64,000 bases of DNA from the NCBI RefSeq assembly GCF_055900595.2, contig NZ_CM148325.1; one strand, written 5' to 3'. Both the position numbers and the translations under genes were made by a program. The number at the start of each line of letters is the position of its first letter. The stretch's first letter is position 1. Under the pieces are notes generated by a model. The model ran no database searches. It saw only the letters and a program-made list of their open reading frames with translations, and was not told the origin of the DNA. Below are positions 13,016 through 61,295 of the stretch, in pieces.

Positions 13016-14533
13016 ATGGAAAGAATAATGCAAAACAGAAAATGGATTTTGACCTCGCTGATAATGACTTTTTTCGGCATCCCCATACTGACGCAATTTT
13101 TGGCAGCGGTTATTGCCATGCTGGGGGCCGGGCTTGCCGCTATTCTTGAGGTTTGCAATTTTCTCTTTACGCCAACAATTTATCTTCTACTCAACGTCTT
13201 TATGCTGACGCTGGGGGCGATAATTCTATTTTTCTCTGGTCGCGTGTGGGCCGGTGATAGCGCACCAGAAAACAGAGAAATAGCCGTCTGGCGGCAATGC
13301 TTTTTTCTTTTACCTGCACTGTTAACTCTGGTTGGCTGGATAATCACGCTACATCTGGCAGATTATCAATTTCGCCAAATGGGAGCAGGTTGGTTGGCAG
13401 AGCTTATGCTCCCCTGGCTGGGAGTTTTGTTAGTCTCATTAGTCGGAGGTGAGTTCTGGTGGATAGTCATTATACCCGTTGGTGCGCATATTAGTTTTTC
13501 GCTGGGGTATGGCTGGCCGACCAGATATCCTTTAACCGGCACGTACGGGTTACGTTGCCGTAATTCCCTCCTGTTTATCCTTCTTATGCTTGGTTTTATC
13601 GCTGGTTATCAGGCTTATTTATATAAACAGCTTAATCCCGGCGTCGGTGTGCGTGAAAATATTGATACCTGGGCCTGGCGACCCGATAAACTCAATAATC
13701 AACTGACGCCACTGCGTGGTAAACCGCAAATTCAGTTTACACAAAACTGGCTGCGACTCGATGGTGCTACGGCGGCGTACCCAATTTATGCTTCTGCCTT
13801 TTATGCGTTGAGCGTTATACCGGAAGATTTCCACACCTGGGAATATCTGGAGAACTCTCGTACCCCCGATGCATATAACAGGATTGTTAAAGGTGATGCC
13901 GATATTATTTTTGTGGCGCAACCTTCCGGTGGGCAGAAAAAACGCGCAGAGGAATCGGGCGTCACTTTGAACTACACTCCTTTCGCCCGTGAAGCATTCG
14001 TTTTCATCGTCAATGCGGATAACCCGGTTAATTCCCTGACTGACCAACAGGTGCGTGACATCTTCAGTGGCGCAATTACCAACTGGCGTACTGTTGGCGG
14101 TAACGATCAGGAGATCCAGACCTGGCAACGCCCGGAAGACTCTGGCAGCCAGACAGTGATGCAATCGCAGGTCATGAAAAATGTCCGCATGATCTCGCCG
14201 CAGGAAACCGAAGTGGCAAGCATGATGGAGGGAATGATTAAAGTTGTTGCCGAATACCGTAATACAAACAACTCAATAGGCTACACCTTCCGCTATTACG
14301 CAACACAAATGAACGCTGACAAGAATATCAAATTAGTAGCGATTAACGGTATTGCACCGACTGCGGAAAATATTCGTAACGGCAAATATCCGTATATCGT
14401 CGATGCCTTTATGGTAACGCGGGAAAATACTACGTCAGAAACACAAAAACTGGTCGAATGGTTTTTAACGCCGCAGGGGCAGAGTCTGGTGGAAGATGTG
14501 GGTTATGTACCGTTGCATACAACAATGAAATAA
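13016..14533 (+). CDS. Fusion protein: N-terminal polytopic membrane domain (~200 aa) + C-terminal PstS-like (phosphate-binding-protein-like) periplasmic domain
   Basis: 505-aa ORF; the N-terminal part has several long hydrophobic segments; the C-terminal part carries the motif QQVRDIFSGAITNWRTVGG...RPEDSGSQTVM, which I recognise as typical of PstS/PBP-like-2 binding proteins. Start could be ATG 13016 or 13028. Confidence 0.7.
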   Translation: MERIMQNRKWILTSLIMTFFGIPILTQFLAAVIAMLGAGLAAILEVCNFLFTPTIYLLLNVFMLTLGAIILFFSGRVWAGDSAPENREIAVWRQCFFLLPALLTLVGWIITLHLADYQFRQMGAGWLAELMLPWLGVLLVSLVGGEFWWIVIIPVGAHISFSLGYGWPTRYPLTGTYGLRCRNSLLFILLMLGFIAGYQAYLYKQLNPGVGVRENIDTWAWRPDKLNNQLTPLRGKPQIQFTQNWLRLDGATAAYPIYASAFYALSVIPEDFHTWEYLENSRTPDAYNRIVKGDADIIFVAQPSGGQKKRAEESGVTLNYTPFAREAFVFIVNADNPVNSLTDQQVRDIFSGAITNWRTVGGNDQEIQTWQRPEDSGSQTVMQSQVMKNVRMISPQETEVASMMEGMIKVVAEYRNTNNSIGYTFRYYATQMNADKNIKLVAINGIAPTAENIRNGKYPYIVDAFMVTRENTTSETQKLVEWFLTPQGQSLVEDVGYVPLHTTMK

Positions 14534-14558
14534 CTTTTGAGAGAACGGAATCAGCGCG

Positions 14559-15551
14559 ATGAATAAATTCATAGGCGTTTTACTGCTAGGTGCGGTTTTA
14601 CTGGCGGGATGTGTCGACCGGGAAGGGTACTATAACAGCGTCAGGGAAGAAGAGAGTCATGGACTGACGTCTCTGCGGGGGCAACCTGAATTACGTTACA
14701 ACGATGATTGGTCAAGATGGCCGAGAGTGTACGGCGCTACAGCCTTATACCCGCTGTATGCCTCCGCGTATTATGAATTAGTACCCGAGCCAAAAGATAA
14801 GGATCGAACCTCGCTGGCCTGGCAGGCGTATGGTTTGCAACAAACCCGAACAGCTGAAGCCTACGATAGTCTGATCAAGGGTACCGCGACGGTTATTTTT
14901 GTTGCACAACCGTCGGAAGGACAGAAAAAACGTGCAGAAGAAGCAGGCGTTAAACTGAAATATACCGCGTTTGCCCGCGAAGCCTTTGTCTTTATCGTTG
15001 ATATCAAAAACCCGGTTAATTCACTTAGCGAACAGCAGGTCAAAGACATTTTTAGCGGTAAAGTGAGTCGCTGGAATAAAGTGGGCGGCGGTGACGAAAG
15101 TATAAAAGTCTGGCAGCGGCCAGAAGATTCTGGAAGCCAAACGGTTATGAAGGGACTGGTTATGCAAGATACTCCAATGCTGCCAGCCAAAAAATCCACT
15201 GTTATCGATCTTATGGGCGGTTTAATTACCGAAGTCGCCGACTACAAAAATACACCATCTTCTATTGGATACACTTTCCACTATTACGTCACACGTATGA
15301 ATGACAATATGCTCAAAATGCGCAAACAGATCAAACTGCTGGCTATAAATGGCGTTGCACCTACAGAGGAAAATATCCGTAACGGCACTTATCCGTACAT
15401 GATTGATGCTTATATGGTGACGCACGAAACCCCTACGCTGGAAACGCAGAAATTCGTCGACTGGTTTTTAAGCCCGCAGGGACAGCAATTGGTAGAGGAT
15501 GTGGGGTATGTGCCGATTCATGACGCATCATACGAATCATCAGTGCAATAA
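14559..15551 (+). CDS. PstS-like periplasmic binding lipoprotein (paralog of the C-terminal domain of the upstream gene)
   Basis: 330-aa ORF; N-terminus MNKFIGVLLLGAVLLAGC has a signal peptide with lipobox (LAGC); aligns by eye with the upstream ORF, e.g. IFVAQPSEGQKKRAEEAGVKLKYTAFAREAFVFIV against IFVAQPSGGQKKRAEESGVTLNYTPFAREAFVFIV. Confidence 0.75.
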   Translation: MNKFIGVLLLGAVLLAGCVDREGYYNSVREEESHGLTSLRGQPELRYNDDWSRWPRVYGATALYPLYASAYYELVPEPKDKDRTSLAWQAYGLQQTRTAEAYDSLIKGTATVIFVAQPSEGQKKRAEEAGVKLKYTAFAREAFVFIVDIKNPVNSLSEQQVKDIFSGKVSRWNKVGGGDESIKVWQRPEDSGSQTVMKGLVMQDTPMLPAKKSTVIDLMGGLITEVADYKNTPSSIGYTFHYYVTRMNDNMLKMRKQIKLLAINGVAPTEENIRNGTYPYMIDAYMVTHETPTLETQKFVDWFLSPQGQQLVEDVGYVPIHDASYESSVQ

Positions 15552-16153
15552 TGATGAATAAAATCAGACTTTATATTCCTCCGTTAATTCTTGGTTTTGT
15601 TATTGTGCCGTTGTTGGTGTGGCCGACGGTGGTTGCGCTGGCTGCTTCTGTTATCACGCTGAGTTTTCTGGGAGAGATACTGTTCTCTATCCCGCTCATG
15701 ATCAGGCGTATTTCACTTCTGCAATTACAACTATGGTTATCGGCTGAATATGCGCTTTTCTGCTGTGCAATGGTGGGCGTTGGTTGGCAATTTGCTCGTA
15801 TAACTCAATCTGAATTGAAAAGCAGACTGCATTGTTGGCTGGTATTTGCACCAGTTTATTTCTGGTTGCTCCTGTGGAATATCATTTTCTATGTCGCGCC
15901 AGCGAATATTGCGTTGCTGGAGAATATGCGCAGTTTCTTTCTGACAGTTGTCTGGCTCCCACTAAATTTTTCGCCATTTTGGTCTCAACCGTGGATTGAC
16001 TTTGTCGGTCCAATAAGCGCACAGCTTGGTTTTGCGTTGGGATATTATTGCCAGTGGCGTAGCAAAAATAGAAGCCAGATACGGAAGTGGAGTGAGTGGG
16101 GAACGTGCCTGAGTTTTGTTACGTTGGGTATGATGGCGTGGGCTTTGCGGTAA
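15551..16153 (+). CDS. Small polytopic membrane protein, paralog of the N-terminal membrane domain of the fusion gene at 13016
   Basis: 200-aa hydrophobic ORF; its start overlaps the upstream stop (TAATG); segment FVGPISAQLGFALGYY resembles IPVGAHISFSLGYGW in the N-terminal domain of the 505-aa ORF. Confidence 0.6.
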   Translation: MMNKIRLYIPPLILGFVIVPLLVWPTVVALAASVITLSFLGEILFSIPLMIRRISLLQLQLWLSAEYALFCCAMVGVGWQFARITQSELKSRLHCWLVFAPVYFWLLLWNIIFYVAPANIALLENMRSFFLTVVWLPLNFSPFWSQPWIDFVGPISAQLGFALGYYCQWRSKNRSQIRKWSEWGTCLSFVTLGMMAWALR

Positions 16154-19278: not shown

Positions 19279-20037
19279 ATGAAACAAACACAACGTCACA
19301 ACGGTATTATTGAACTGGTTAAACAGCAGGGTTATGTCAGCACCGAAGAACTGGTGGAACACTTCTCCGTCAGTCCGCAGACTATTCGTCGTGACCTCAA
19401 CGAGCTGGCGGAGCAAAACCTGATCCTGCGTCACCATGGCGGCGCGGCACTGCCTTCCAGTTCGGTTAACACGCCGTGGCACGATCGTAAGGCCACCCAG
19501 ACCGAAGAAAAAGAGCGTATTGCCCGCAAAGTGGCGGAGCAAATTCCTAACGGCTCGACGCTATTTATTGATATCGGCACCACGCCGGAAGCGGTGGCGC
19601 ACGCGCTGCTTAATCACAGCAATTTGCGCATTGTGACCAACAATCTCAACGTCGCTAACACGCTGATGGTAAAAGAAGATTTTCGCATCATTCTTGCAGG
19701 TGGCGAATTACGCAGCCGCGATGGTGGGATCATTGGCGAAGCGACGCTCGATTTTATCTCCCAGTTCCGCCTTGATTTCGGGATTCTGGGGATCAGCGGC
19801 ATCGATAGCGACGGCTCGCTGCTGGAGTTCGATTACCACGAAGTTCGCACCAAACGCGCTATTATTGAGAACTCGCGCCACGTTATGCTGGTTGTCGATC
19901 ACTCGAAATTTGGCCGTAATGCGATGGTCAATATGGGCAGCATCAGCATGGTCGATGCCGTCTACACCGACGCCCCGCCACCAGCGAGCGTGATGCAGGT
20001 GCTGACAGACCATCATATTCAGCTGGAGCTGTGCTGA
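19279..20037 (+). CDS. glpR: DeoR-family glycerol-3-phosphate regulon repressor
   Basis: 252-aa ORF recognised as GlpR; N-terminal HTH plus DeoR sugar-phosphate-binding domain; 3' end overlaps the convergent rtcR by 19 bp. Confidence 0.95.
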   Translation: MKQTQRHNGIIELVKQQGYVSTEELVEHFSVSPQTIRRDLNELAEQNLILRHHGGAALPSSSVNTPWHDRKATQTEEKERIARKVAEQIPNGSTLFIDIGTTPEAVAHALLNHSNLRIVTNNLNVANTLMVKEDFRIILAGGELRSRDGGIIGEATLDFISQFRLDFGILGISGIDSDGSLLEFDYHEVRTKRAIIENSRHVMLVVDHSKFGRNAMVNMGSISMVDAVYTDAPPPASVMQVLTDHHIQLELC

Positions 20038-21617
20038 TCCTGCACGGCTTCCCACGTCAGACCAAAACGCGCCAGGTATTTGCGTAGCCGATCCGCGTCG
20101 TTGACGCTGGCTTTGCCCTGGCGCGAAACATCAAAGAGTTCACGCCCGGCAGCGGAAAGCGATTTTGCCTGACGGCAGATAGCGATAACGTGTTCCAGTT
20201 GCAGCCGATCAAAGAGGTCGATGTTTTCCGCTTCAGCGCCCAGTAGCTGCTTAAGCGCAGAAGAGCGGCTATCCTGCCAGTTGTAGCGTAGACGGTTTAT
20301 CTCATCTTCTACGGTTTCAAGGGTGATACGCCCACTATCGGCAAACGTCGCCATGCGTGTGACGCTGGCAGAAAGCTCGCGAAAGTTACCGCGCCATGTT
20401 GCCTGGGGAGATGTCGCAAAGGCCAGCCAGGCGCGCCTCGCTTCGGTGTTAAAACGTACGCTGTCGCCGGTGAGTGAGGCGTGGCGCTCCACTTCATAAT
20501 CCAGGTTCGGTTCAATATCTTCCTGGCGCTGGCGTAGACCCGGCAGGGTGAAGGTCCAGAGATTGATCCGCGCGTACAGGTCTTCGCGAAATTTGCCTTC
20601 GGCAACCAGCTGACGCAAATCGCGCACCGTTCCGGCGATCAGCTGAAAATCACTGCTCACCTGGCGATCGCTACCAAACGGGTAAAAGGTTTTCTCTTCA
20701 ATGGCTTTCAGCAACATCGCCTGTTCGTCTGCGCCCAGTTCGCCAATCTCATCAAGAAACAACATGCCACCGTTGGCGCTGCGTAATAATCCTTCACGAG
20801 ATTCCCGCGCCCCGGTGAACGCGCCTTTCACATGACCAAACAGCGCGGACATGGCGGTATCGCCACGCAGAGTGGCGCAGTTCACTTCCACAAACTCGCC
20901 GCTAAACTGATGCCTCGCCTGTTTTAACTCGAAGATGCGTCGTGCCAGAAACGACTTTCCCGCACCAGTTGGGCCGTTGAGCAGGATCGGCGCGCGGGAT
21001 CTAATCGCCACTTTTTCGATCTGCTCAATCATGCGGTTGAAATGGGAGTTACGCGTGGCAATGCCGGATTTGAGGAAATCGAGGGTTTGCTGGCGTTCTT
21101 CGGCAAAGCGGCTGGCAATAGCGTTATAACGGCTTAAATCGAGATCGATAATCGTCACCGCACCAGGGCTGTTGGGCTGTTCTTTTTTACGCGGTGGCGA
21201 AGATTGTATTAACCTGGCGGGCAGGTAACGCGCTTCCGCCAGCAGAAACCAGCAAATCTGCGCGACGTGGGTACCGGTGGTGATGTGAATTAAATAGTCT
21301 TCTTTATCAGGTTCGAACGCGTAACCACGGGCGAAATCATGCAGGCAGGCGTAAACCTCCTCGAAATCCCACGGGTTATGCAGTTCAATCTCAACGCTCA
21401 CCACTTCTGTTTCTGGCGAAACATTGGCGATATCGCGTTTAAGCGTTTCAAACAGCGAGCGTGAGCGGGCGTCGTGCAACAATTCCAGTCGATTGATGAC
21501 TAACGATTCTTGCTGGCATAGACAGAGTGACGGACGCCATTTCGACCATCGCTGACTGCCGCGCCCGGCATAATCCAGTACGGTGCCGACAAAGCCAAAA
21601 GCCACTGTTTTACGCAT
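20019..21617 (-). CDS. rtcR: Sigma-54-dependent transcriptional activator of rtcBA
   Basis: 532-aa ORF recognised as RtcR; central AAA+ sigma54-interaction domain (GPTGAGKS Walker A, GAFTGA motif) and C-terminal HTH. Confidence 0.95.
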   Translation of the reverse strand: MRKTVAFGFVGTVLDYAGRGSQRWSKWRPSLCLCQQESLVINRLELLHDARSRSLFETLKRDIANVSPETEVVSVEIELHNPWDFEEVYACLHDFARGYAFEPDKEDYLIHITTGTHVAQICWFLLAEARYLPARLIQSSPPRKKEQPNSPGAVTIIDLDLSRYNAIASRFAEERQQTLDFLKSGIATRNSHFNRMIEQIEKVAIRSRAPILLNGPTGAGKSFLARRIFELKQARHQFSGEFVEVNCATLRGDTAMSALFGHVKGAFTGARESREGLLRSANGGMLFLDEIGELGADEQAMLLKAIEEKTFYPFGSDRQVSSDFQLIAGTVRDLRQLVAEGKFREDLYARINLWTFTLPGLRQRQEDIEPNLDYEVERHASLTGDSVRFNTEARRAWLAFATSPQATWRGNFRELSASVTRMATFADSGRITLETVEDEINRLRYNWQDSRSSALKQLLGAEAENIDLFDRLQLEHVIAICRQAKSLSAAGRELFDVSRQGKASVNDADRLRKYLARFGLTWEAVQDQHSSS

Positions 21618-21750
21618 CTTAGATATCCTTATAAAAGACGATATTTCATTATCGGCGAATTGGCTTTGCGGGAAATCTCCGCTTACGGACGTAAAGATTT
21701 AATCTATTAAAAACAATGAATTAAAAAATTAAGCTGCTTATTTAATTTTC

Positions 21751-21766
21751 TGGCACGACGGTTGCA
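21751..21766 (+). promoter_or_regulatory. Sigma-54 (-24/-12) promoter of rtcBA: TGGCAC-N5-TTGCA
   Basis: Exact match to the RpoN consensus GG-N10-GC (TGGCACgacggTTGCA) seen ~40 bp upstream of the rtcB ATG; consistent with the known RtcR/sigma54 control of rtcBA. Confidence 0.8.
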
Positions 21767-21804
21767 ATTATCTGGACAGCAAACAACGAAAAGAGAAAAA
21801 CAAA

Positions 21805-23031
21805 ATGAATTACGAATTACTGACCACTGAAAATGCCCCGGTAAAAATGTGGACCAAAGGCGTGCCGGTAGAGGCCGATGCGCGTCAGCAACTTATTAAT
21901 ACGGCGAAGATGCCGTTTATTTTCAAACATATTGCGGTAATGCCGGATGTACACCTGGGTAAAGGTTCCACCATTGGTAGCGTGATCCCAACCAAAGGAG
22001 CGATTATTCCGGCGGCGGTGGGGGTAGATATCGGTTGTGGAATGAACGCACTGCGAACTGCGTTAACGGCGGCTGACCTGCCTGAAAACCTGGCGGAGCT
22101 GCGTCAGGCGATTGAAACTGCCGTGCCGCACGGACGTTCCAATAATCGTAGCCGTCGTGATAAAGGCGCATGGGAGCATCCGCCTGTTAACGTCGATGCG
22201 AAATGGGCTGAGCTTGAAGCCGGTTATCAGTGGTTAACGCAAAAATATCCGCGTTTCCTTAACACTAATAACTATAAATATCTGGGAACGCTGGGAACGG
22301 GTAACCACTTTATTGAAATCTGCCTTGATGAGTCGGACCAGGTGTGGATTATGCTGCACTCCGGTTCACGCGGAATTGGTAATGCCATCGGGACTTACTT
22401 TATCGATCTGGCACAAAAAGAGATGCAGGAAACGCTTGAAACGTTGCCATCGCGTGACCTGGCGTACTTTATGGAAGGTACGGAATACTTTGATGATTAC
22501 CTGAAAGCGGTGGCCTGGGCGCAGCTTTTTGCCAGCCTTAACCGCGATGCGATGATGGAAAACGTGGTAACGGCGTTGCAGAGCGTTACGCAGAAAACGG
22601 TAAGACAGCCACAAACACTGGCGATGGAAGAGATCAACTGTCACCACAACTATGTGCAAAAAGAACAGCACTTTGGCGAAGAGATCTATGTGACGCGTAA
22701 AGGCGCGGTGTCTGCGTGTGCTGGTCAATATGGAATTATTCCCGGTTCGATGGGGGCGAAAAGCTTTATTGTCCGTGGGCTGGGAAATGAAGAGTCGTTC
22801 TGTTCGTGCAGCCACGGTGCCGGGCGGGTAATGAGCCGTACTAAAGCGAAAAAACTGTTCAGCGTGGAAGATCAAATTCGTGCTACCGCGCATGTGGAAT
22901 GCCGTAAAGATGCCGAAGTGATCGACGAAATCCCGATGGCGTATAAAGATATCGACGCGGTGATGGCGGCACAAAGCGATCTGGTGGAAGTAATCTACAC
23001 CCTGCGTCAGGTGGTGTGTGTAAAAGGATAA
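21805..23031 (+). CDS. rtcB: RNA-splicing ligase RtcB (3'-phosphate/5'-OH RNA ligase)
   Basis: 408-aa ORF recognised as RtcB. Confidence 0.97.
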   Translation: MNYELLTTENAPVKMWTKGVPVEADARQQLINTAKMPFIFKHIAVMPDVHLGKGSTIGSVIPTKGAIIPAAVGVDIGCGMNALRTALTAADLPENLAELRQAIETAVPHGRSNNRSRRDKGAWEHPPVNVDAKWAELEAGYQWLTQKYPRFLNTNNYKYLGTLGTGNHFIEICLDESDQVWIMLHSGSRGIGNAIGTYFIDLAQKEMQETLETLPSRDLAYFMEGTEYFDDYLKAVAWAQLFASLNRDAMMENVVTALQSVTQKTVRQPQTLAMEEINCHHNYVQKEQHFGEEIYVTRKGAVSACAGQYGIIPGSMGAKSFIVRGLGNEESFCSCSHGAGRVMSRTKAKKLFSVEDQIRATAHVECRKDAEVIDEIPMAYKDIDAVMAAQSDLVEVIYTLRQVVCVKG

Positions 23032-24051
<1,020 letters not shown>

Positions 24052-24093
24052 TGCAGAGATGTAAGCCGGATCCGACGTATTATCCGGCTAAAC

Positions 24094-26805
<2,712 letters not shown>

Positions 26806-26913
26806 TCACTTCACTGTGGAAAATGAGGAAATATTATTTTTTTTGCGCTTCGTAATTAATGGTTATAAGGTCGGCCAGAAACCCTTCTAATGCAAGCGAT
26901 GACGTTTTTTTAT

Positions 26914-26938
26914 GTGTCTGAATTTGCACTGTGTCACA
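26914..26938. promoter_or_regulatory. Candidate CRP site in the malT promoter region (TGTGtctgaatttgcactgTGTCACA)
   Basis: TGTGA/TCACA-like half-sites ~115-140 bp upstream of the malT ATG; malT is known to be CRP-activated; exact site boundaries not verified. Confidence 0.3.
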
Positions 26939-27307
26939 ATTCCAAATGTTTATTAACAACTCACCTAATAACGACGCTGATGCAGCGTGAATACTGGGTT
27001 TTACGGTATTTTCCTCATGTTCATCAGTTTCATTTAAGCAAGGGAGTCTTCTCAATTCCTGATGAAAGAGCCATCTAAAAAGAGGATCTTAATAAACCTA
27101 TTAAGAATGAGATGGAGCAAACTGGATGTTTTACTTATGAAACTGTTTCACTCCTTTACTTAATTTATAGAGTTACCTTCCGCCTTTTGAAAATACACAA
27201 CGGCCATTTTTTGCACTTAGATACAGATTTTCTGCGCTGTATGGCATTGATTTGCTGCTAATCCTGTGGATTGCACTAGGTTTAAGTGGTCGAGATCACA
27301 TTTCCTT

Positions 27308-45559: not shown

Positions 45560-45685
45560 GTGCACTCAGTATCTACTGAATGAATACGGTTTCAGACATC
45601 GGCACCATACGAAGTAAAGTGTACTGTAAGCTGATTGCAGGCTAGCGTATCCTGATTAGTAAAAGCACACTAAAGGAATAGCTTG

Positions 45686-46969
45686 ATGCAACTTACCAAC
45701 GAAGAACAAGTACAGATTGCTCGTATAAAAGAAAAAATCCCACGCATTGCCGCACTGGATCCTGAATGTAAGTTATTCGGTTCTGAAGGTTGGAAATATC
45801 AATGGCCGAAGCCTGCCAGCGAGGCGGAAATAGCTTCCTGGGAGAAAAAACATAGCGTCACTTTGCCACGGGAATATCGAATTTTTCTTCGCTATATCGC
45901 TAATGGCGGTCCGGCACATGCCTACGGTCTTGAATCTTTAGGCGGTACAGATATTTATGGCGATATAACAAAAGAAAGCCCTGTACCGCTTTATATGACG
46001 CAGCAGGATGTTGATGTGTTGAATGCTGGCCGTACAGAAGATGATGAAGAATATAGTTTTTTTGACGGCGCATTGACCATTCTCACCCTGGGATGTACTT
46101 ATGATATTTGCCTGGTGGTGACGGGGCAGTATCGCGGAAGGTTAATGCTGACTGATGGTGATGAAGATTATCCGTTTGATTTTATATATGATAAAAATTT
46201 CCTCAACTGGTATGAACGCTGGCTGGACGATTTTATTGCTGGCATGAGTATGAAGGGTTTCGATAGAAGTTTGCCAGGAACGCAAATTCAACTGCGTGAG
46301 TGGTTTTTAACTGAGAAAATCCCGGATTTACGTAGATCCATTTTATTCTCGCTATGCCGTTTTCCACAGATAGAACCCGAAACATTTGCCCTTTGGGAAC
46401 ATGTTTGCCACACAGAGAATGATAAAGAATTGTGTGAAGAGGCATTCATAAGATTACGCCAAAAAAAAGTTTCTTGTGCTGCAGATATTTTTCGACTCTA
46501 TTTTACAATGCCAGATGAATTACGTGATATTGCTATTAAAGATCTCCGTTTTGCCTGTAGAGATAGTGTGGTGAATATTGAGGATTATATTCATTCACTG
46601 TTAATAATAATGCCTGAACTTGACGATGACACTCTATCCTCAGCTGTCTTTGCTATACGAGAAACAGAGTATAATAAATATGATACTTTTCTGCCGCTTC
46701 TCGAACGTATCACTGATGACCGTCAGCAAACATTATTGTGGGCGATGAGTAAGGCGCCTGATTTCAATGAAAGCCGAGGATTCATTGAGTTGGTATTACC
46801 GCTTTTTGCATCATCAAAGATGGAGAATGTAAGGAAGGCTATTTTGTTGCTCATTGAAGTTAAAGATAATCGTATTCCACCATTGGTTGATGAAGCTGCA
46901 ACTCGTTTCCCTGAACTGACCATTTTACGAGAAAACTACTATCTCAGGACGTGGGGACATAAGCCATAA
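45686..46969 (+). CDS. SMI1/KNR4 (SUKH-1)-like domain protein with C-terminal helical-repeat region; accessory gene
   Basis: 427-aa ORF (ATG 45686 with AGGAA 8 nt upstream); motif WEKKHSVTLPREYRIFLRYIANGG and downstream FFDGALTILTLG...GRLMLTDGDEDYPF match the SMI1/KNR4 signature as I recall it; GC content visibly lower than the flanking genes. Confidence 0.7.
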   Translation: MQLTNEEQVQIARIKEKIPRIAALDPECKLFGSEGWKYQWPKPASEAEIASWEKKHSVTLPREYRIFLRYIANGGPAHAYGLESLGGTDIYGDITKESPVPLYMTQQDVDVLNAGRTEDDEEYSFFDGALTILTLGCTYDICLVVTGQYRGRLMLTDGDEDYPFDFIYDKNFLNWYERWLDDFIAGMSMKGFDRSLPGTQIQLREWFLTEKIPDLRRSILFSLCRFPQIEPETFALWEHVCHTENDKELCEEAFIRLRQKKVSCAADIFRLYFTMPDELRDIAIKDLRFACRDSVVNIEDYIHSLLIIMPELDDDTLSSAVFAIRETEYNKYDTFLPLLERITDDRQQTLLWAMSKAPDFNESRGFIELVLPLFASSKMENVRKAILLLIEVKDNRIPPLVDEAATRFPELTILRENYYLRTWGHKP

Positions 46970-47006
46970 ATTAATGGTTCAGAAATGATCTAACGCGGAG
47001 AAAAAT

Positions 47007-47537
47007 ATGATCAGGGAACATATTCAGCAAGCGATAAATAATAGGTTAGCCTTTGATGGCCCATTCAATGTTGTTCCTGAACCTGCAAGCACTGCGTTTG
47101 ATAGCCGGATCCCGACATTGAAAAACGGTGTCTGGCAGAAGGCCAGCCCTATGTTGCAGGCGCGTTTTGCACATTGTGGACGTTGGTTAAGCGCTACACA
47201 TGGAAGCTGGCTAAGTATAAGTGACATGGAAACGCTTTGGCAGGAACACATAGAAGATACGTTTCTTGATGAAATCAAAATGAATGCTGTAGCTTCAAGT
47301 GATAATTGGGATAACCATGCCTTGGGACTATTTCGTTCTCATCGCCTGTCACTTTTTGCCGGTAGTGATTACAGTTATGAAATGGTTTTTCTCCTTTGGC
47401 TAGATAGTACCGTTGAGCCAGAGGTCTGGGTTTATGACTGCAATGGGGAATCACGTTATAAAGATCTTAATGATTACCTGAATGCATATATTAATGATGA
47501 CGTAAGCGCCTGTGAGTGCTCCTGGCGAGTAGAATGA
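47007..47537 (+). CDS. Small hypothetical protein, possibly SUKH-superfamily-like; accessory gene
   Basis: 176-aa ORF with GCGGAG ribosome-binding site; C-terminal segment LFAGSDYSYEMVFLLWLDSTVEPEVWVYDCNGESRYKDLNDYLNAYI resembles the C-terminal half of SUKH-type immunity domains (weak, by eye). Confidence 0.6.
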   Translation: MIREHIQQAINNRLAFDGPFNVVPEPASTAFDSRIPTLKNGVWQKASPMLQARFAHCGRWLSATHGSWLSISDMETLWQEHIEDTFLDEIKMNAVASSDNWDNHALGLFRSHRLSLFAGSDYSYEMVFLLWLDSTVEPEVWVYDCNGESRYKDLNDYLNAYINDDVSACECSWRVE

Positions 47538-48160
47538 ATAGCCCCCCTTGCCCCTTTGATCCACAAACCGCACATTACCTCGGCACAGTGCAAATCCACT
47601 ACACCCAAACCGCCTTCAACGCTGCCGTTAAGCATTATACCTGTTACATTAAAAAGCGTTTTAAAGGGTTTAAATGGGGAATCCGAACCGCTGGCTTATT
47701 GGCTATACTGCCCATGATCCCACAATGGTTGAAACCTTCTCATGACTTTAAACTCAACGCAATCAGTACGTTAATTCTTCTATTAATGTTGCCACTCCTC
47801 TTATCAATGTTCCTGTTAATCAGCAGAAGAATTAACGATTTTAAGTCAAAAACAAAGCAAGTTACTTTTACGAAACCCGTGCGTTATGCGTTTTATTTCG
47901 AGGGGATTGTTTTTTATGAATCTCATCAGCAGGGCATACTTCGCTGGGAAGATTTTTATAGCATTGAGTATGAAGAAGATTATTTGTGGCTTTTTCTGCA
48001 TTTACCGAAGAGTTGTCCCAGAGAAGCGACGAAAGCGTTTTGCGATATTTTCATTCCCACCAGTGCGATAAAAGCGCAGCCTGAACTGGATACGTTTTTT
48101 CGTGAAACACGCCACTCGCTGGATTATCTGTTTGTCCCGTTTAATTCTGACAGAAAATAA
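47534..48160 (+). CDS. Two-helix membrane protein with a C-terminal domain resembling YcxB-like / bacterial PH-like domains; accessory gene
   Basis: ORF 47516..48160; the probable ATG 47534 overlaps the upstream stop in an ATGA (translational coupling); two hydrophobic helices (LLAILPMIPQWL, ISTLILLLMLPLLLSMFLLI) are followed by a soluble ~100-aa domain. Confidence 0.55.
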   Translation: MNSPPCPFDPQTAHYLGTVQIHYTQTAFNAAVKHYTCYIKKRFKGFKWGIRTAGLLAILPMIPQWLKPSHDFKLNAISTLILLLMLPLLLSMFLLISRRINDFKSKTKQVTFTKPVRYAFYFEGIVFYESHQQGILRWEDFYSIEYEEDYLWLFLHLPKSCPREATKAFCDIFIPTSAIKAQPELDTFFRETRHSLDYLFVPFNSDRK

Positions 48161-60756: not shown

Positions 60757-61295
60757 TGAACCCGCCAATTAATTTTTTGCCCTGGCGACAGCAACGCCGG
60801 ACCGCTTTTCTTCGTTTCTGGTTGCTGATGTTCGTTGCGCCTCTGCTGCTGACCGTCGGGATAACGCTAATATTGCGTCTGACAAGCAACGCCGAAGCTC
60901 GCGTAGATGCCGTTTTGCTTCAGGCGGAACAACAACTCGCCCACAGCTTACAAATAACGAAACCACGTTTGCTGGAGCGCCAACAAATTCGTGAGCAGCG
61001 TTTGCAAAGGCAGCGCCAGCGACAATTTACCCGTGACTGGCAATCTGCGCTGGAAGCACTGGCGGCGCTTTTACCCGAGCACGCCTGGCTGACAACGATA
61101 AGCTGGCAGCAGGGAACGCTGGAGATCAAGGGGCTAACAACAAGCATTACCGCGTTAAACGCGCTGGAAACGTCACTCCGCCAGGATGCTTCTTTTCATC
61201 TCAATCAGCGGGGGGCCACGCAGCAGGATGCGCAGGGACGCTGGCAATTTGAGTATCAGTTAACAAGGAAGGTTAGCGATGGACATGCTCTTTGA
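60756..61295 (+). CDS. hofN: PilN-like protein HofN
   Basis: ORF 60663..61295; recognised start MNPPINFLPWRQQRR at ATG 60756, which shares one nucleotide with the hofM stop (TGATG); 179 aa. Confidence 0.9.
   Translation: MNPPINFLPWRQQRRTAFLRFWLLMFVAPLLLTVGITLILRLTSNAEARVDAVLLQAEQQLAHSLQITKPRLLERQQIREQRLQRQRQRQFTRDWQSALEALAALLPEHAWLTTISWQQGTLEIKGLTTSITALNALETSLRQDASFHLNQRGATQQDAQGRWQFEYQLTRKVSDGHAL

Follow-up and report, generated by a model that had tools for sequence, protein, structure and literature searches.

The rtcR/rtcBA RNA-repair locus of a divergent Escherichia coli lineage: its sigma-54 promoter and a candidate RtcR enhancer

Which RNA-repair module does this stretch of DNA carry, and by which signals is it likely to be controlled? 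In the window (the whole stretch analysed, 64 kb) the locus is almost certainly the E. coli rtcR/rtcBA RNA-repair locus, under the control of sigma-54 and RtcR. DNA identical to it is annotated as rtcR, rtcB and rtcA in RefSeq, and nothing in the window's sequence speaks against this reading. The gene order is glpR–rtcR, the divergent rtcB–rtcA pair and then malT. A 187-bp intergenic region separates rtcR, on the minus strand, from rtcB and rtcA on the plus strand, while the 3′ ends of rtcR and glpR overlap by 19 bp. This is an ordinary, already known system, which in E. coli K-12 was first reported by Genschik, Drabikowski and Filipowicz (J Biol Chem 1998, as cited in PMC5175333). The genes of the locus are as follows.

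20019–21617, minus strand: rtcR, 532 aa, an uninterrupted ORF
21805–23031, plus strand: rtcB, 408 aa, RNA 3′-phosphate/2′,3′-cyclic phosphate to 5′-OH ligase
23035–24051, plus strand: rtcA, 338 aa, RNA 3′-terminal phosphate cyclase

The initial annotation had described an intact RNA-repair module with a divergent rtcR enhancer-binding protein, and both statements are borne out: all three ORFs are full length, and the catalytic and sigma-54-contact motifs are kept. The span that it gave, 20019–21766, takes in rtcR and the intergenic region as far as the −12 element, but leaves rtcBA (21805–24051) outside. The gene identities are upheld by profile searches. With 850 bits, RtcR exceeds the 650-bit cut-off of the equivalog NF038308, a model that spans residues 1–527, and its domains match PF06956 (283 bits), PF00158 (172 bits) and also PF25601. 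Its architecture is as follows.

RtcR residues 2–185: RtcR/CARF-type N-terminal domain (PF06956)
RtcR residues 187–354: AAA+ sigma-54 interaction domain (PF00158)
RtcR residues 362–444: AAA lid

RtcR contains a Walker A motif (GPTGAGKS) at residue 215, GAFTGA at 265 and a Walker B motif at 285. The AAA+ domain resembles the structures of PspF, NtrC1, ZraR and FleQ (E-values 1e-27 to 1e-43); in the same structure comparison, residues 1–186 and 440–532 are covered by no solved structure. The C-terminal tail is presumed to bind DNA; a Pfam search for a helix-turn-helix in residues 449–532 gave no match, even at E ≤ 10.

RtcB matches PF01139 with 443 bits, its relatives of solved structure are RtcB ligases, and it retains the nucleotidyl-accepting histidine H337 as well as the metal ligands C78, H185 and H281; PMC5175333 employed H337A as its catalytic mutant. 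RtcA matches NF003247 with 771 bits, contains PF01137 and PF05189, retains the adenylyl-accepting histidine H308 and aligns with E. coli RtcA (structures 3KGD and 1QMH) at an E-value of 5e-214. The rtcB stop codon and the rtcA start are 3 nt apart, a spacing which suggests that the two genes are co-transcribed; rtcA might alternatively begin at the in-frame ATG at 23032. Beyond rtcA, the convergent gene malT ends after a gap of 42 nt, measured between the two stop codons, and this gap holds one further feature.

24065–24088, in the gap between the rtcA and malT stops: hairpin GCCGGAT-N10-ATCCGGC

This hairpin folds with −13.5 kcal/mol (z = −2.2 against shuffles), has no U-tract, and may be the end of both the rtcA and the malT transcripts. 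A search of the whole window with Rfam at the gathering threshold gave no match, so the operon and its surroundings contain neither Y RNAs nor another known RNA family.

The window is 93–99% identical to K-12 and represents a divergent E. coli lineage. Gene order and ORF lengths (532, 408 and 338 aa) are the same as for the K-12 genes b3422 and b3421–b4475, whereas nucleotide identity across the locus is 92–95%. RtcR carries 23 substitutions (95.7% amino acid identity), only five of which fall in the AAA+ domain, RtcB carries 10 (97.6%) and RtcA eight. Within its neighbourhood RtcR has diverged the most, MalT, GlpD and GlpG being 98.8–100% identical to their K-12 counterparts. The rtc genes lie at the low end of the window's range of identity to K-12. 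That the rtc region, which is 90–95% identical to most E. coli, might be an introgressed segment was considered and rejected, the whole window being 93–98.8% identical to K-12. The neighbouring glpR is intact here, in contrast to the pseudogene of MG1655.

The intergenic region contains a sigma-54-type element on the rtcB strand. The 16-mer TGGCACGACGGTTGCA (TGGCAC-N5-TTGCA) lies at 21751–21766 on the plus strand and consists of TGGCAC (21751–21756), the spacer GACGG and TTGCA (21762–21766). With one further base it forms the promoter element proper.

21750–21766, plus strand: extended 17-mer CTGGCACGACGGTTGCA, the rtcBA promoter, with GG at −25/−24 and GC at −13/−12

As had been claimed, the match to TGGCAC-N5-TTGCA is exact; it is the sole one in the 64-kb window when both strands are scanned. 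The earlier figure of 40 bp upstream of rtcB is about right, the measured distance from the last base of TTGCA to the rtcB ATG (21805) being 38 nt. The extended consensus YTGGCACGR-N3-TTGCW is matched perfectly at 21750–21766, the only site in the window with one mismatch or fewer. When two mismatches to the sigma-54 pattern are tolerated, 26 sites are found across the window against 28 expected, and since such sites are no more numerous than chance predicts, only the site at 21750–21766 stands out. The two-mismatch matches elsewhere were accordingly dismissed. The main-text ChIP-seq tables of PMC4591121 do not list the one-mismatch site at 61003–61018.

Could the 16-mer be a chance match without promoter function? 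Dinucleotide shuffling gives an expectation of 0.10 exact matches per window, and 10 of 100 shuffled windows held one somewhere. A chance match is made even less likely by the position of the site, which is intergenic (in a region of only 187 bp), on the rtcB strand and 38 nt from the rtcB start codon. The 17-mer is, moreover, base for base the K-12 sigma-54 site OS35, bound in vivo by ChIP-seq and flagged as experimentally confirmed in EcoCyc (PMC4591121); the description of the system as already known is sound. The element is also conserved across genera. Among 18 rtcR loci of other bacteria, from gamma-, beta- and delta-type lineages, 16 have it at a nearly fixed distance of 132–200 bp from the rtcR start. 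In 14 of the 18, rtcB and/or rtcA is divergent from rtcR, and in the Intestinirhabdus, Superficieibacter and Pseudomonas loci rtcB lies about 2 kb past the promoter, leaving room for intervening genes. A non-functional chance match is effectively refuted by this evidence and is barely conceivable.

From the promoter, the probable start of rtcB transcription can be placed as follows.

21777–21804, plus strand: predicted rtcB start C21777 and 28-nt leader

The leader carries a purine-rich ribosome-binding stretch, AAAGAGAAAAA. The assignment rests on PMC4591121 and PMC9650030. A start predicted 19 bp downstream of the centre of the motif reproduces the 'distance 28' entered for rtcB in the first; in the second, native PrtcBA was primed in vitro with an ApC primer and ATP, which fits A21776–C21777–A21778. 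The predicted start and the ApC/ATP priming alike would place the GC of TTGCA (21762–21766) at −13/−12, and are thus consistent with the −12 element proposed in the initial annotation.

A perfect sequence match does not by itself make a strong promoter. The element had been called 'textbook', which holds for its sequence, but the in vitro activity of the native K-12 promoter was reported as very low, and some of the induction of rtcBA does not require RtcR and may come from other promoters (PMC9650030). The operon of the window's lineage might thus be silent, or run mainly on RtcR-independent promoters, through the A-to-T change at −4 (T at 21773, A in K-12) or the 23 substitutions in RtcR, its neighbourhood's most diverged protein. 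The locus has been deleted from about 10% of complete E. coli genomes, so selection on it is not absolute. Against this, no ORF of the three is interrupted, the catalytic and contact motifs are kept, and only five of the RtcR substitutions lie in the AAA+ domain. The intergenic region differs from that of K-12 by seven substitutions and a 1-bp indel (187 bp here, 188 bp in K-12), the change at −4 among them, yet the 17-bp −24/−12 element and the IHF-like site and GATA block described below are identical. Nor was a better sigma-70 promoter found on the rtcB strand of the intergenic region. Across 19900–24300, a scan for consensus sigma-70 promoters and terminators gave no excess over chance and none at all in the intergenic region, and a relaxed scan gave a single weak candidate, on the rtcR strand. 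That the operon of this lineage is silent or mainly RtcR-independent is therefore considered very improbable.

An upstream activating sequence (UAS) and an IHF site have been stated to exist at the rtc promoter (PMC9650030). The IHF site may be placed in the A+T-rich spacer.

21711–21723, plus strand: IHF-like site AAACAATGAATTA, one mismatch to WATCAANNNNTTR

The site is centred at about −60 from the rtcB start. The same offset, 34–36 bp upstream of the T of the −24 element, is occupied by a perfect IHF match in three Pseudomonas loci and in Iodobacter and Accumulibacter, and by the one-mismatch version in all Escherichia sequences. This recurrence suggests that 21711–21723 is the rtc IHF site of the literature.

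The sequence of the enhancer is less readily recovered from published work: the supplements of PMC9650030 name a UAS-containing plasmid only, and PMC9879122 and PMC7790460 mention the enhancer without its sequence. Alignment from Escherichia to Klebsiella, Intestinirhabdus and Superficieibacter shows that, besides the −24/−12 element, one main block of the intergenic region has been kept.

21618–21654, no strand assigned: conserved block CTTAGATATCCTTATAAAAGACGATATTTCATTATCG, adjoining the rtcR start codon

The block holds GATATC (21622–21627) and the dyad CGATA-N6-TATCG (21639–21654), and its GATA half-sites are spaced by about 10 bp. Nowhere else in the window does the dyad occur, against an expectation of 0.04. 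Across 13 species, the 67 nt nearest rtcR contain 34 GATA/TATC tetramers, against four in the next 67 nt and a shuffle mean of 10; none of 5000 shuffles reached 34. The spacings between these tetramers peak at 10, 20 and 30 bp. It was only through cross-species comparison that the GATA motif came to light. A general search for repeats between rtcR and rtcB had yielded mainly A+T-rich pairs attributable to chance, and the short GATA dyad was not among them.

On this comparative evidence the phased GATA block at 21618–21654, centred at about −130 to −153 from the rtcB start, is likely to be the RtcR enhancer. RtcR bound there would also autoregulate rtcR, because the block overlaps the probable −10 element and leader of that gene. 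Enhancers that overlap the activator's own promoter are familiar from other sigma-54 activators. The wider proposition, that these phased GATA(A) half-sites are an RtcR enhancer conserved from Escherichia to Pseudomonas and the Desulfobacterota and that RtcR bound to them would autoregulate rtcR, is evenly balanced between holding and failing. The motif may already have been described by Genschik et al. (1998) or in RegulonDB/EcoCyc.

The same block can be read in another way, as nothing more than a signal for rtcR expression, made up of a sigma-70 −10 element, a short leader and a Shine-Dalgarno sequence, with the true enhancer elsewhere. It does hold a weak sigma-70-like −10, GATAAT (minus strand, 21653–21648), which forms the pair TTTCCC-16-GATAAT ending at 21648, and the rtcR Shine-Dalgarno AAGGA (minus strand, 21626–21630), which overlaps GATATC. 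For rtcR of Salmonella, PMC9879122 describes a divergent promoter of the sigma-70 type. The enhancer might then lie, for example, at the dyads GCGGGAAATCTCCGC and TCCGCTTACGGA (about 21665–21687), which are specific to Escherichia. However, one −10 and one Shine-Dalgarno sequence cannot account for the GATA/TATC tetramers that 12 of 13 species carry, at two to four copies each and with 10/20/30-bp phasing; among the 12 are Pseudomonas and Desulfobacterota, where the flanks are otherwise unrelated. The dyads of 21655–21700, moreover, are not kept in Klebsiella, Intestinirhabdus and Superficieibacter, despite an RtcR that is 81–83% identical. A mere expression signal is thus the less probable reading, albeit one that keeps some weight, and the two roles can coexist.

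With the enhancer placed at the GATA block, the following mechanism can be proposed. Sigma-54 RNA polymerase at 21750–21766 would form a closed complex, unable to start transcription alone; rpoN itself lies outside the window. RtcR, supplied by the divergent gene, would be held in check by its CARF-type N-terminal domain, which would restrain the AAA+ ATPase until an RNA-damage ligand binds. In Salmonella the RtcR ligand is a tRNA fragment with a 2′,3′-cyclic phosphate end (PMC7790460); RtcA and RtcB contribute to signalling as well. Active RtcR would then oligomerise on the upstream enhancer, presumably at the phased GATA sites of 21618–21654, and IHF would bend the A+T-rich spacer around 21711–21723 so that RtcR meets the polymerase. 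The GAFTGA loop, together with ATP hydrolysis, would open the promoter, and transcription from about C21777 would yield an rtcB–rtcA mRNA. RNA 3′-phosphate ends would be cyclised by RtcA, and ligation to 5′-OH ends would be carried out by RtcB. RtcR dependence and CARF repression have been reported for the K-12 promoter (PMC9650030, PMC5175333). In the window, the genes, the motifs and the promoter sequence with its cross-genus conservation are all present.

Such an arrangement would be typical of promoters of the classical enhancer/IHF/sigma-54 kind whose activator gene is divergent, of which pspF–pspA is an example. The −24/−12 core and the GAFTGA-containing AAA+ activator are shared with promoters of this type, and so, probably, are an enhancer within about −100 to −150 and an IHF bend near −60. 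In contrast, the sensory domain of RtcR is a CARF-type RNA-ligand domain, and there is no receiver domain or PspA partner. The rtcR/rsr-yrlBA-rtcBA system of Salmonella Typhimurium is closer, sharing the divergent rtcR, the sigma-54 promoter, CARF repression and activation by damaged tRNA (PMC7790460, PMC9879122). It differs in having rsr (Ro60) and two Y RNAs between promoter and rtcB, whereas in the window rtcB follows the promoter directly.

The system has been characterised since 1998, and an intact copy in another E. coli strain therefore changes nothing. The link between RNA repair and toxin stress that had been drawn for this locus is supported by the finding that the VapC tRNase induces PrtcBA via RtcR (PMC5175333). 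The window's strain is equipped for an RtcR-dependent response to tRNA- and rRNA-cleaving toxins, ribosome-targeting antibiotics and oxidative stress, a response of which roughly a tenth of complete E. coli genomes are incapable, having deleted the locus. The small addition made here is a comparative map of the regulatory region, comprising a candidate GATA-type enhancer, the IHF position and a fixed promoter geometry, which could help promoter engineering or studies of RtcR–DNA binding.

Around the rtc locus the gene order is glpD, glpE, glpG, glpR, rtcR (minus strand), rtcB, rtcA and malT (minus strand), with the following features:

19279-20037, plus strand: glpR, 252 aa, 553 bits to NF008154
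20019-21617, minus strand: rtcR, 532 aa, uninterrupted ORF
between rtcR and rtcB: intergenic region, 187 bp
21711-21723: IHF-like site AAACAATGAATTA, one mismatch, ~60 bp upstream of the predicted rtcB transcription start
21805-23031, plus strand: rtcB, 408 aa
23035-24051, plus strand: rtcA, 338 aa; an in-frame ATG at 23032 is an alternative start

The 3' ends of the convergent glpR and rtcR overlap by 19 bp (20019-20037), as in K-12; glpR is complete here and a frameshifted pseudogene in MG1655. The span 20019-21766, initially annotated as the rtcBA operon, covers rtcR and the regulatory region, while rtcBA itself lies outside it.

RtcR passes the cut-off of 650 bits for the NCBIfam equivalog ‘RNA repair transcriptional activator RtcR’ with 850 bits. 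By Pfam it comprises an RtcR N-terminal domain (residues 2-185) and a sigma-54 interaction domain (187-354) followed by an AAA lid, and retains Walker A (GPTGAGKS, 215), Walker B (285) and the GAFTGA loop (265), which contacts sigma-54. Solved structures cover the AAA+ core of RtcR only, leaving the CARF and C-terminal parts without coverage. Pfam finds no helix-turn-helix in the last 84 residues, and DNA binding by this tail is therefore assumed from family membership. The RNA ligase RtcB matches PF01139 at 443 bits and retains H337, the position changed in a published catalytic mutant (PMC5175333). The RNA 3'-phosphate cyclase RtcA matches NF003247 at 771 bits, retains H308 and matches E. 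coli RtcA crystal structures at 5e-214.

Compared with K-12 MG1655, the rtc genes are of equal length and 92–95% identical in DNA, and the proteins are 95.7% (RtcR), 97.6% (RtcB) and 97.6% (RtcA) identical; the intergenic region differs by seven substitutions and one 1-bp indel, with the -24/-12 core unchanged. Complete ORFs, family scores, motifs and this comparison together strongly support the initial reading that the window carries an intact, already described RNA-repair operon.

The promoter element TGGCACGACGGTTGCA lies at 21751-21766 on the rtcB strand, inside the rtcR/rtcB intergenic region. The exact TGGCAC-N5-TTGCA match reported initially is indeed present and is the only one in the 64 kb on either strand (0.10 expected from shuffles); it has no mismatch to the longer consensus YTGGCACGR-N3-TTGCW either. 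Its last TTGCA base lies 38 nt from the rtcB ATG, in line with the 40 bp first given. In the rest of the window, looser sigma-54 matches are no more frequent than by chance (26 found versus 28 expected). One sigma-54-like sequence with a single mismatch, TGGCGCTGCCTTTGCA (61003-61018, minus strand), lies antisense inside a hofN homologue; it is probably a chance match, since it is missing from the main-text ChIP-seq tables of PMC4591121.

The 17-mer CTGGCACGACGGTTGCA of the window is identical to the motif of the K-12 sigma-54 ChIP-seq site OS35, which is assigned to rtcB and flagged ‘experimentally confirmed in EcoCyc’; its predicted start lies 28 bp from the gene (PMC4591121). Transferred to the window, this start falls on C21777, placing GG at -25/-24 and GC at -13/-12. 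The native rtcBA promoter is primed in vitro by the -1/+1 dinucleotide ApC together with ATP (PMC9650030), which agrees with A21776-C21777-A21778. No further ACA lies close by except that at 21783-21785, which would be too distant from the -12 element. The OS35 prediction and the priming thus place the start without conflict with the -12 element. Between that element and the predicted start, the sole difference from K-12 is A to T at -4 (21773).

Regulation has been studied at the K-12 promoter, which is identical, and at its counterpart in Salmonella. Expression of rtcBA requires sigma-54 and RtcR; RtcA and RtcB, both required in signalling, bind the CARF domain; an rtc upstream activating sequence and an IHF site are stated to exist (PMC9650030; PMC5175333). 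The native promoter, though consensus in sequence, is very weak in vitro (PMC9650030). In Salmonella, the ligand of the CARF domain is tRNA fragments with a terminal 2',3'-cyclic phosphate (PMC7790460). The proposed link to toxin stress is borne out by the tRNase toxin VapC, which induces the promoter through RtcR (PMC5175333).

Eight RefSeq E. coli chromosomes match the interval 19900-24200 at 100% identity; one is that of strain E200086 from Mali, where the same DNA is annotated rtcR, rtcB and rtcA. Over the rtc segment, identity reaches at least 99% in only 8 of the 5468 RefSeq records that match, which are human stool isolates from Mali and a few others. RtcR is about equally far (94–96% aa) from K-12, E. 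whittamii, E. albertii and two further Escherichia species. In 2-kb steps the whole window is 93–98.8% identical to K-12, with the rtc genes at the low end; the strain therefore belongs to a divergent, probably deep-branching E. coli lineage, and the rtc region is not a special import.

Two inserts relative to K-12 are also seen. Between glgP and glpD, where K-12 has the small yzgL, a three-gene insert (13016-16153, plus strand) has genes for two proteins of the PstS/PBP_like_2 phosphate-binding type (505 and 330 aa) and for a third of 200 aa that has no Pfam match. Between envZ and pck, a 2.7-kb insert missing in K-12 (45683-48160, plus strand) holds a gene for a SUKH-1 (SMI1/KNR4) domain protein of 428 aa and, after it, ORFs of 176 and 214 aa that lack Pfam matches. 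SUKH-1 domains are frequent in immunity proteins of polymorphic toxin systems.

The rtc locus is not universal in E. coli. rtcR-rtcBA (20040-24051) is at least 80% covered in 4837 of 5426 complete genomes, and in ~566 (~10%) only 19% of the locus is left. In this remnant the last 399 nt of rtcR are fused to the last 420 nt of rtcA (as in L026, NZ_AP022064.1), the deletion being equivalent to ~20403-23634 in the window; another Escherichia genome (L023) carries a second, independent deletion (~20112-23911). Chromosomal fragments of the rtc region also occur on some E. coli plasmids, with 44 matching places in all. In plasmid NZ_CP122915.1 (L027), 5894-8974 matches window 23711-27072, comprising the 333 nt at the end of rtcA together with a complete malT; flanked by a mer operon and IS1/pco genes, it is apparently a captured piece of chromosome.

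Scanning one genome per species with the RtcR protein yielded 21 loci, 18 with a full-length RtcR relative. rtcB and/or rtcA are divergent from rtcR at 14 of these 18, in several ~2 kb past the promoter, and a -24/-12 element lies 132–200 bp from the rtcR start at 16. The exceptions are two Desulfovibrio loci; Kf353 has the near-miss TGGCATGTTCCGTGCT, and no -24/-12 element was seen at the UMGS1582 (Desulfovibrio) locus.

When the intergenic region of Escherichia is aligned with those of Klebsiella, Intestinirhabdus, Superficieibacter and Iodobacter, two blocks are conserved, the -24/-12 core and 37 bp abutting the rtcR start codon (21618-21654); the rtcB leader is conserved in parts. The 37-bp block includes GATATC and the dyad CGATA-N6-TATCG, which occurs once in the window (0.04 expected). 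In 13 independent species taken together, the rtcR-proximal 67 nt hold 34 copies of GATA/TATC and the next 67 nt hold 4; shuffles average 10, and none of 5000 reached 34. Distances between the sites have maxima at 10, 20 and 30 bp, so that the sites share one helix face. On this pattern, the block is likely the RtcR enhancer, centred ~130–150 bp upstream of the predicted start. Its conservation may be due in part to rtcR expression signals, as it also holds the rtcR Shine-Dalgarno sequence and, on the rtcR strand, a weak sigma-70-like -10 element (GATAAT), but several phased copies in unrelated lineages favour a protein-binding array. Iodobacter, Accumulibacter and three Pseudomonas species have a perfect WATCAANNNNTTR as far from the -24 element as the IHF-like site is here.

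The anatomy of the regulatory region that we infer here, with a putative enhancer and IHF position, is a small comparative addition to the known system. The enhancer and rtcR-expression roles predicted for the block can be compatible; if both hold, autoregulation of RtcR would be implied.
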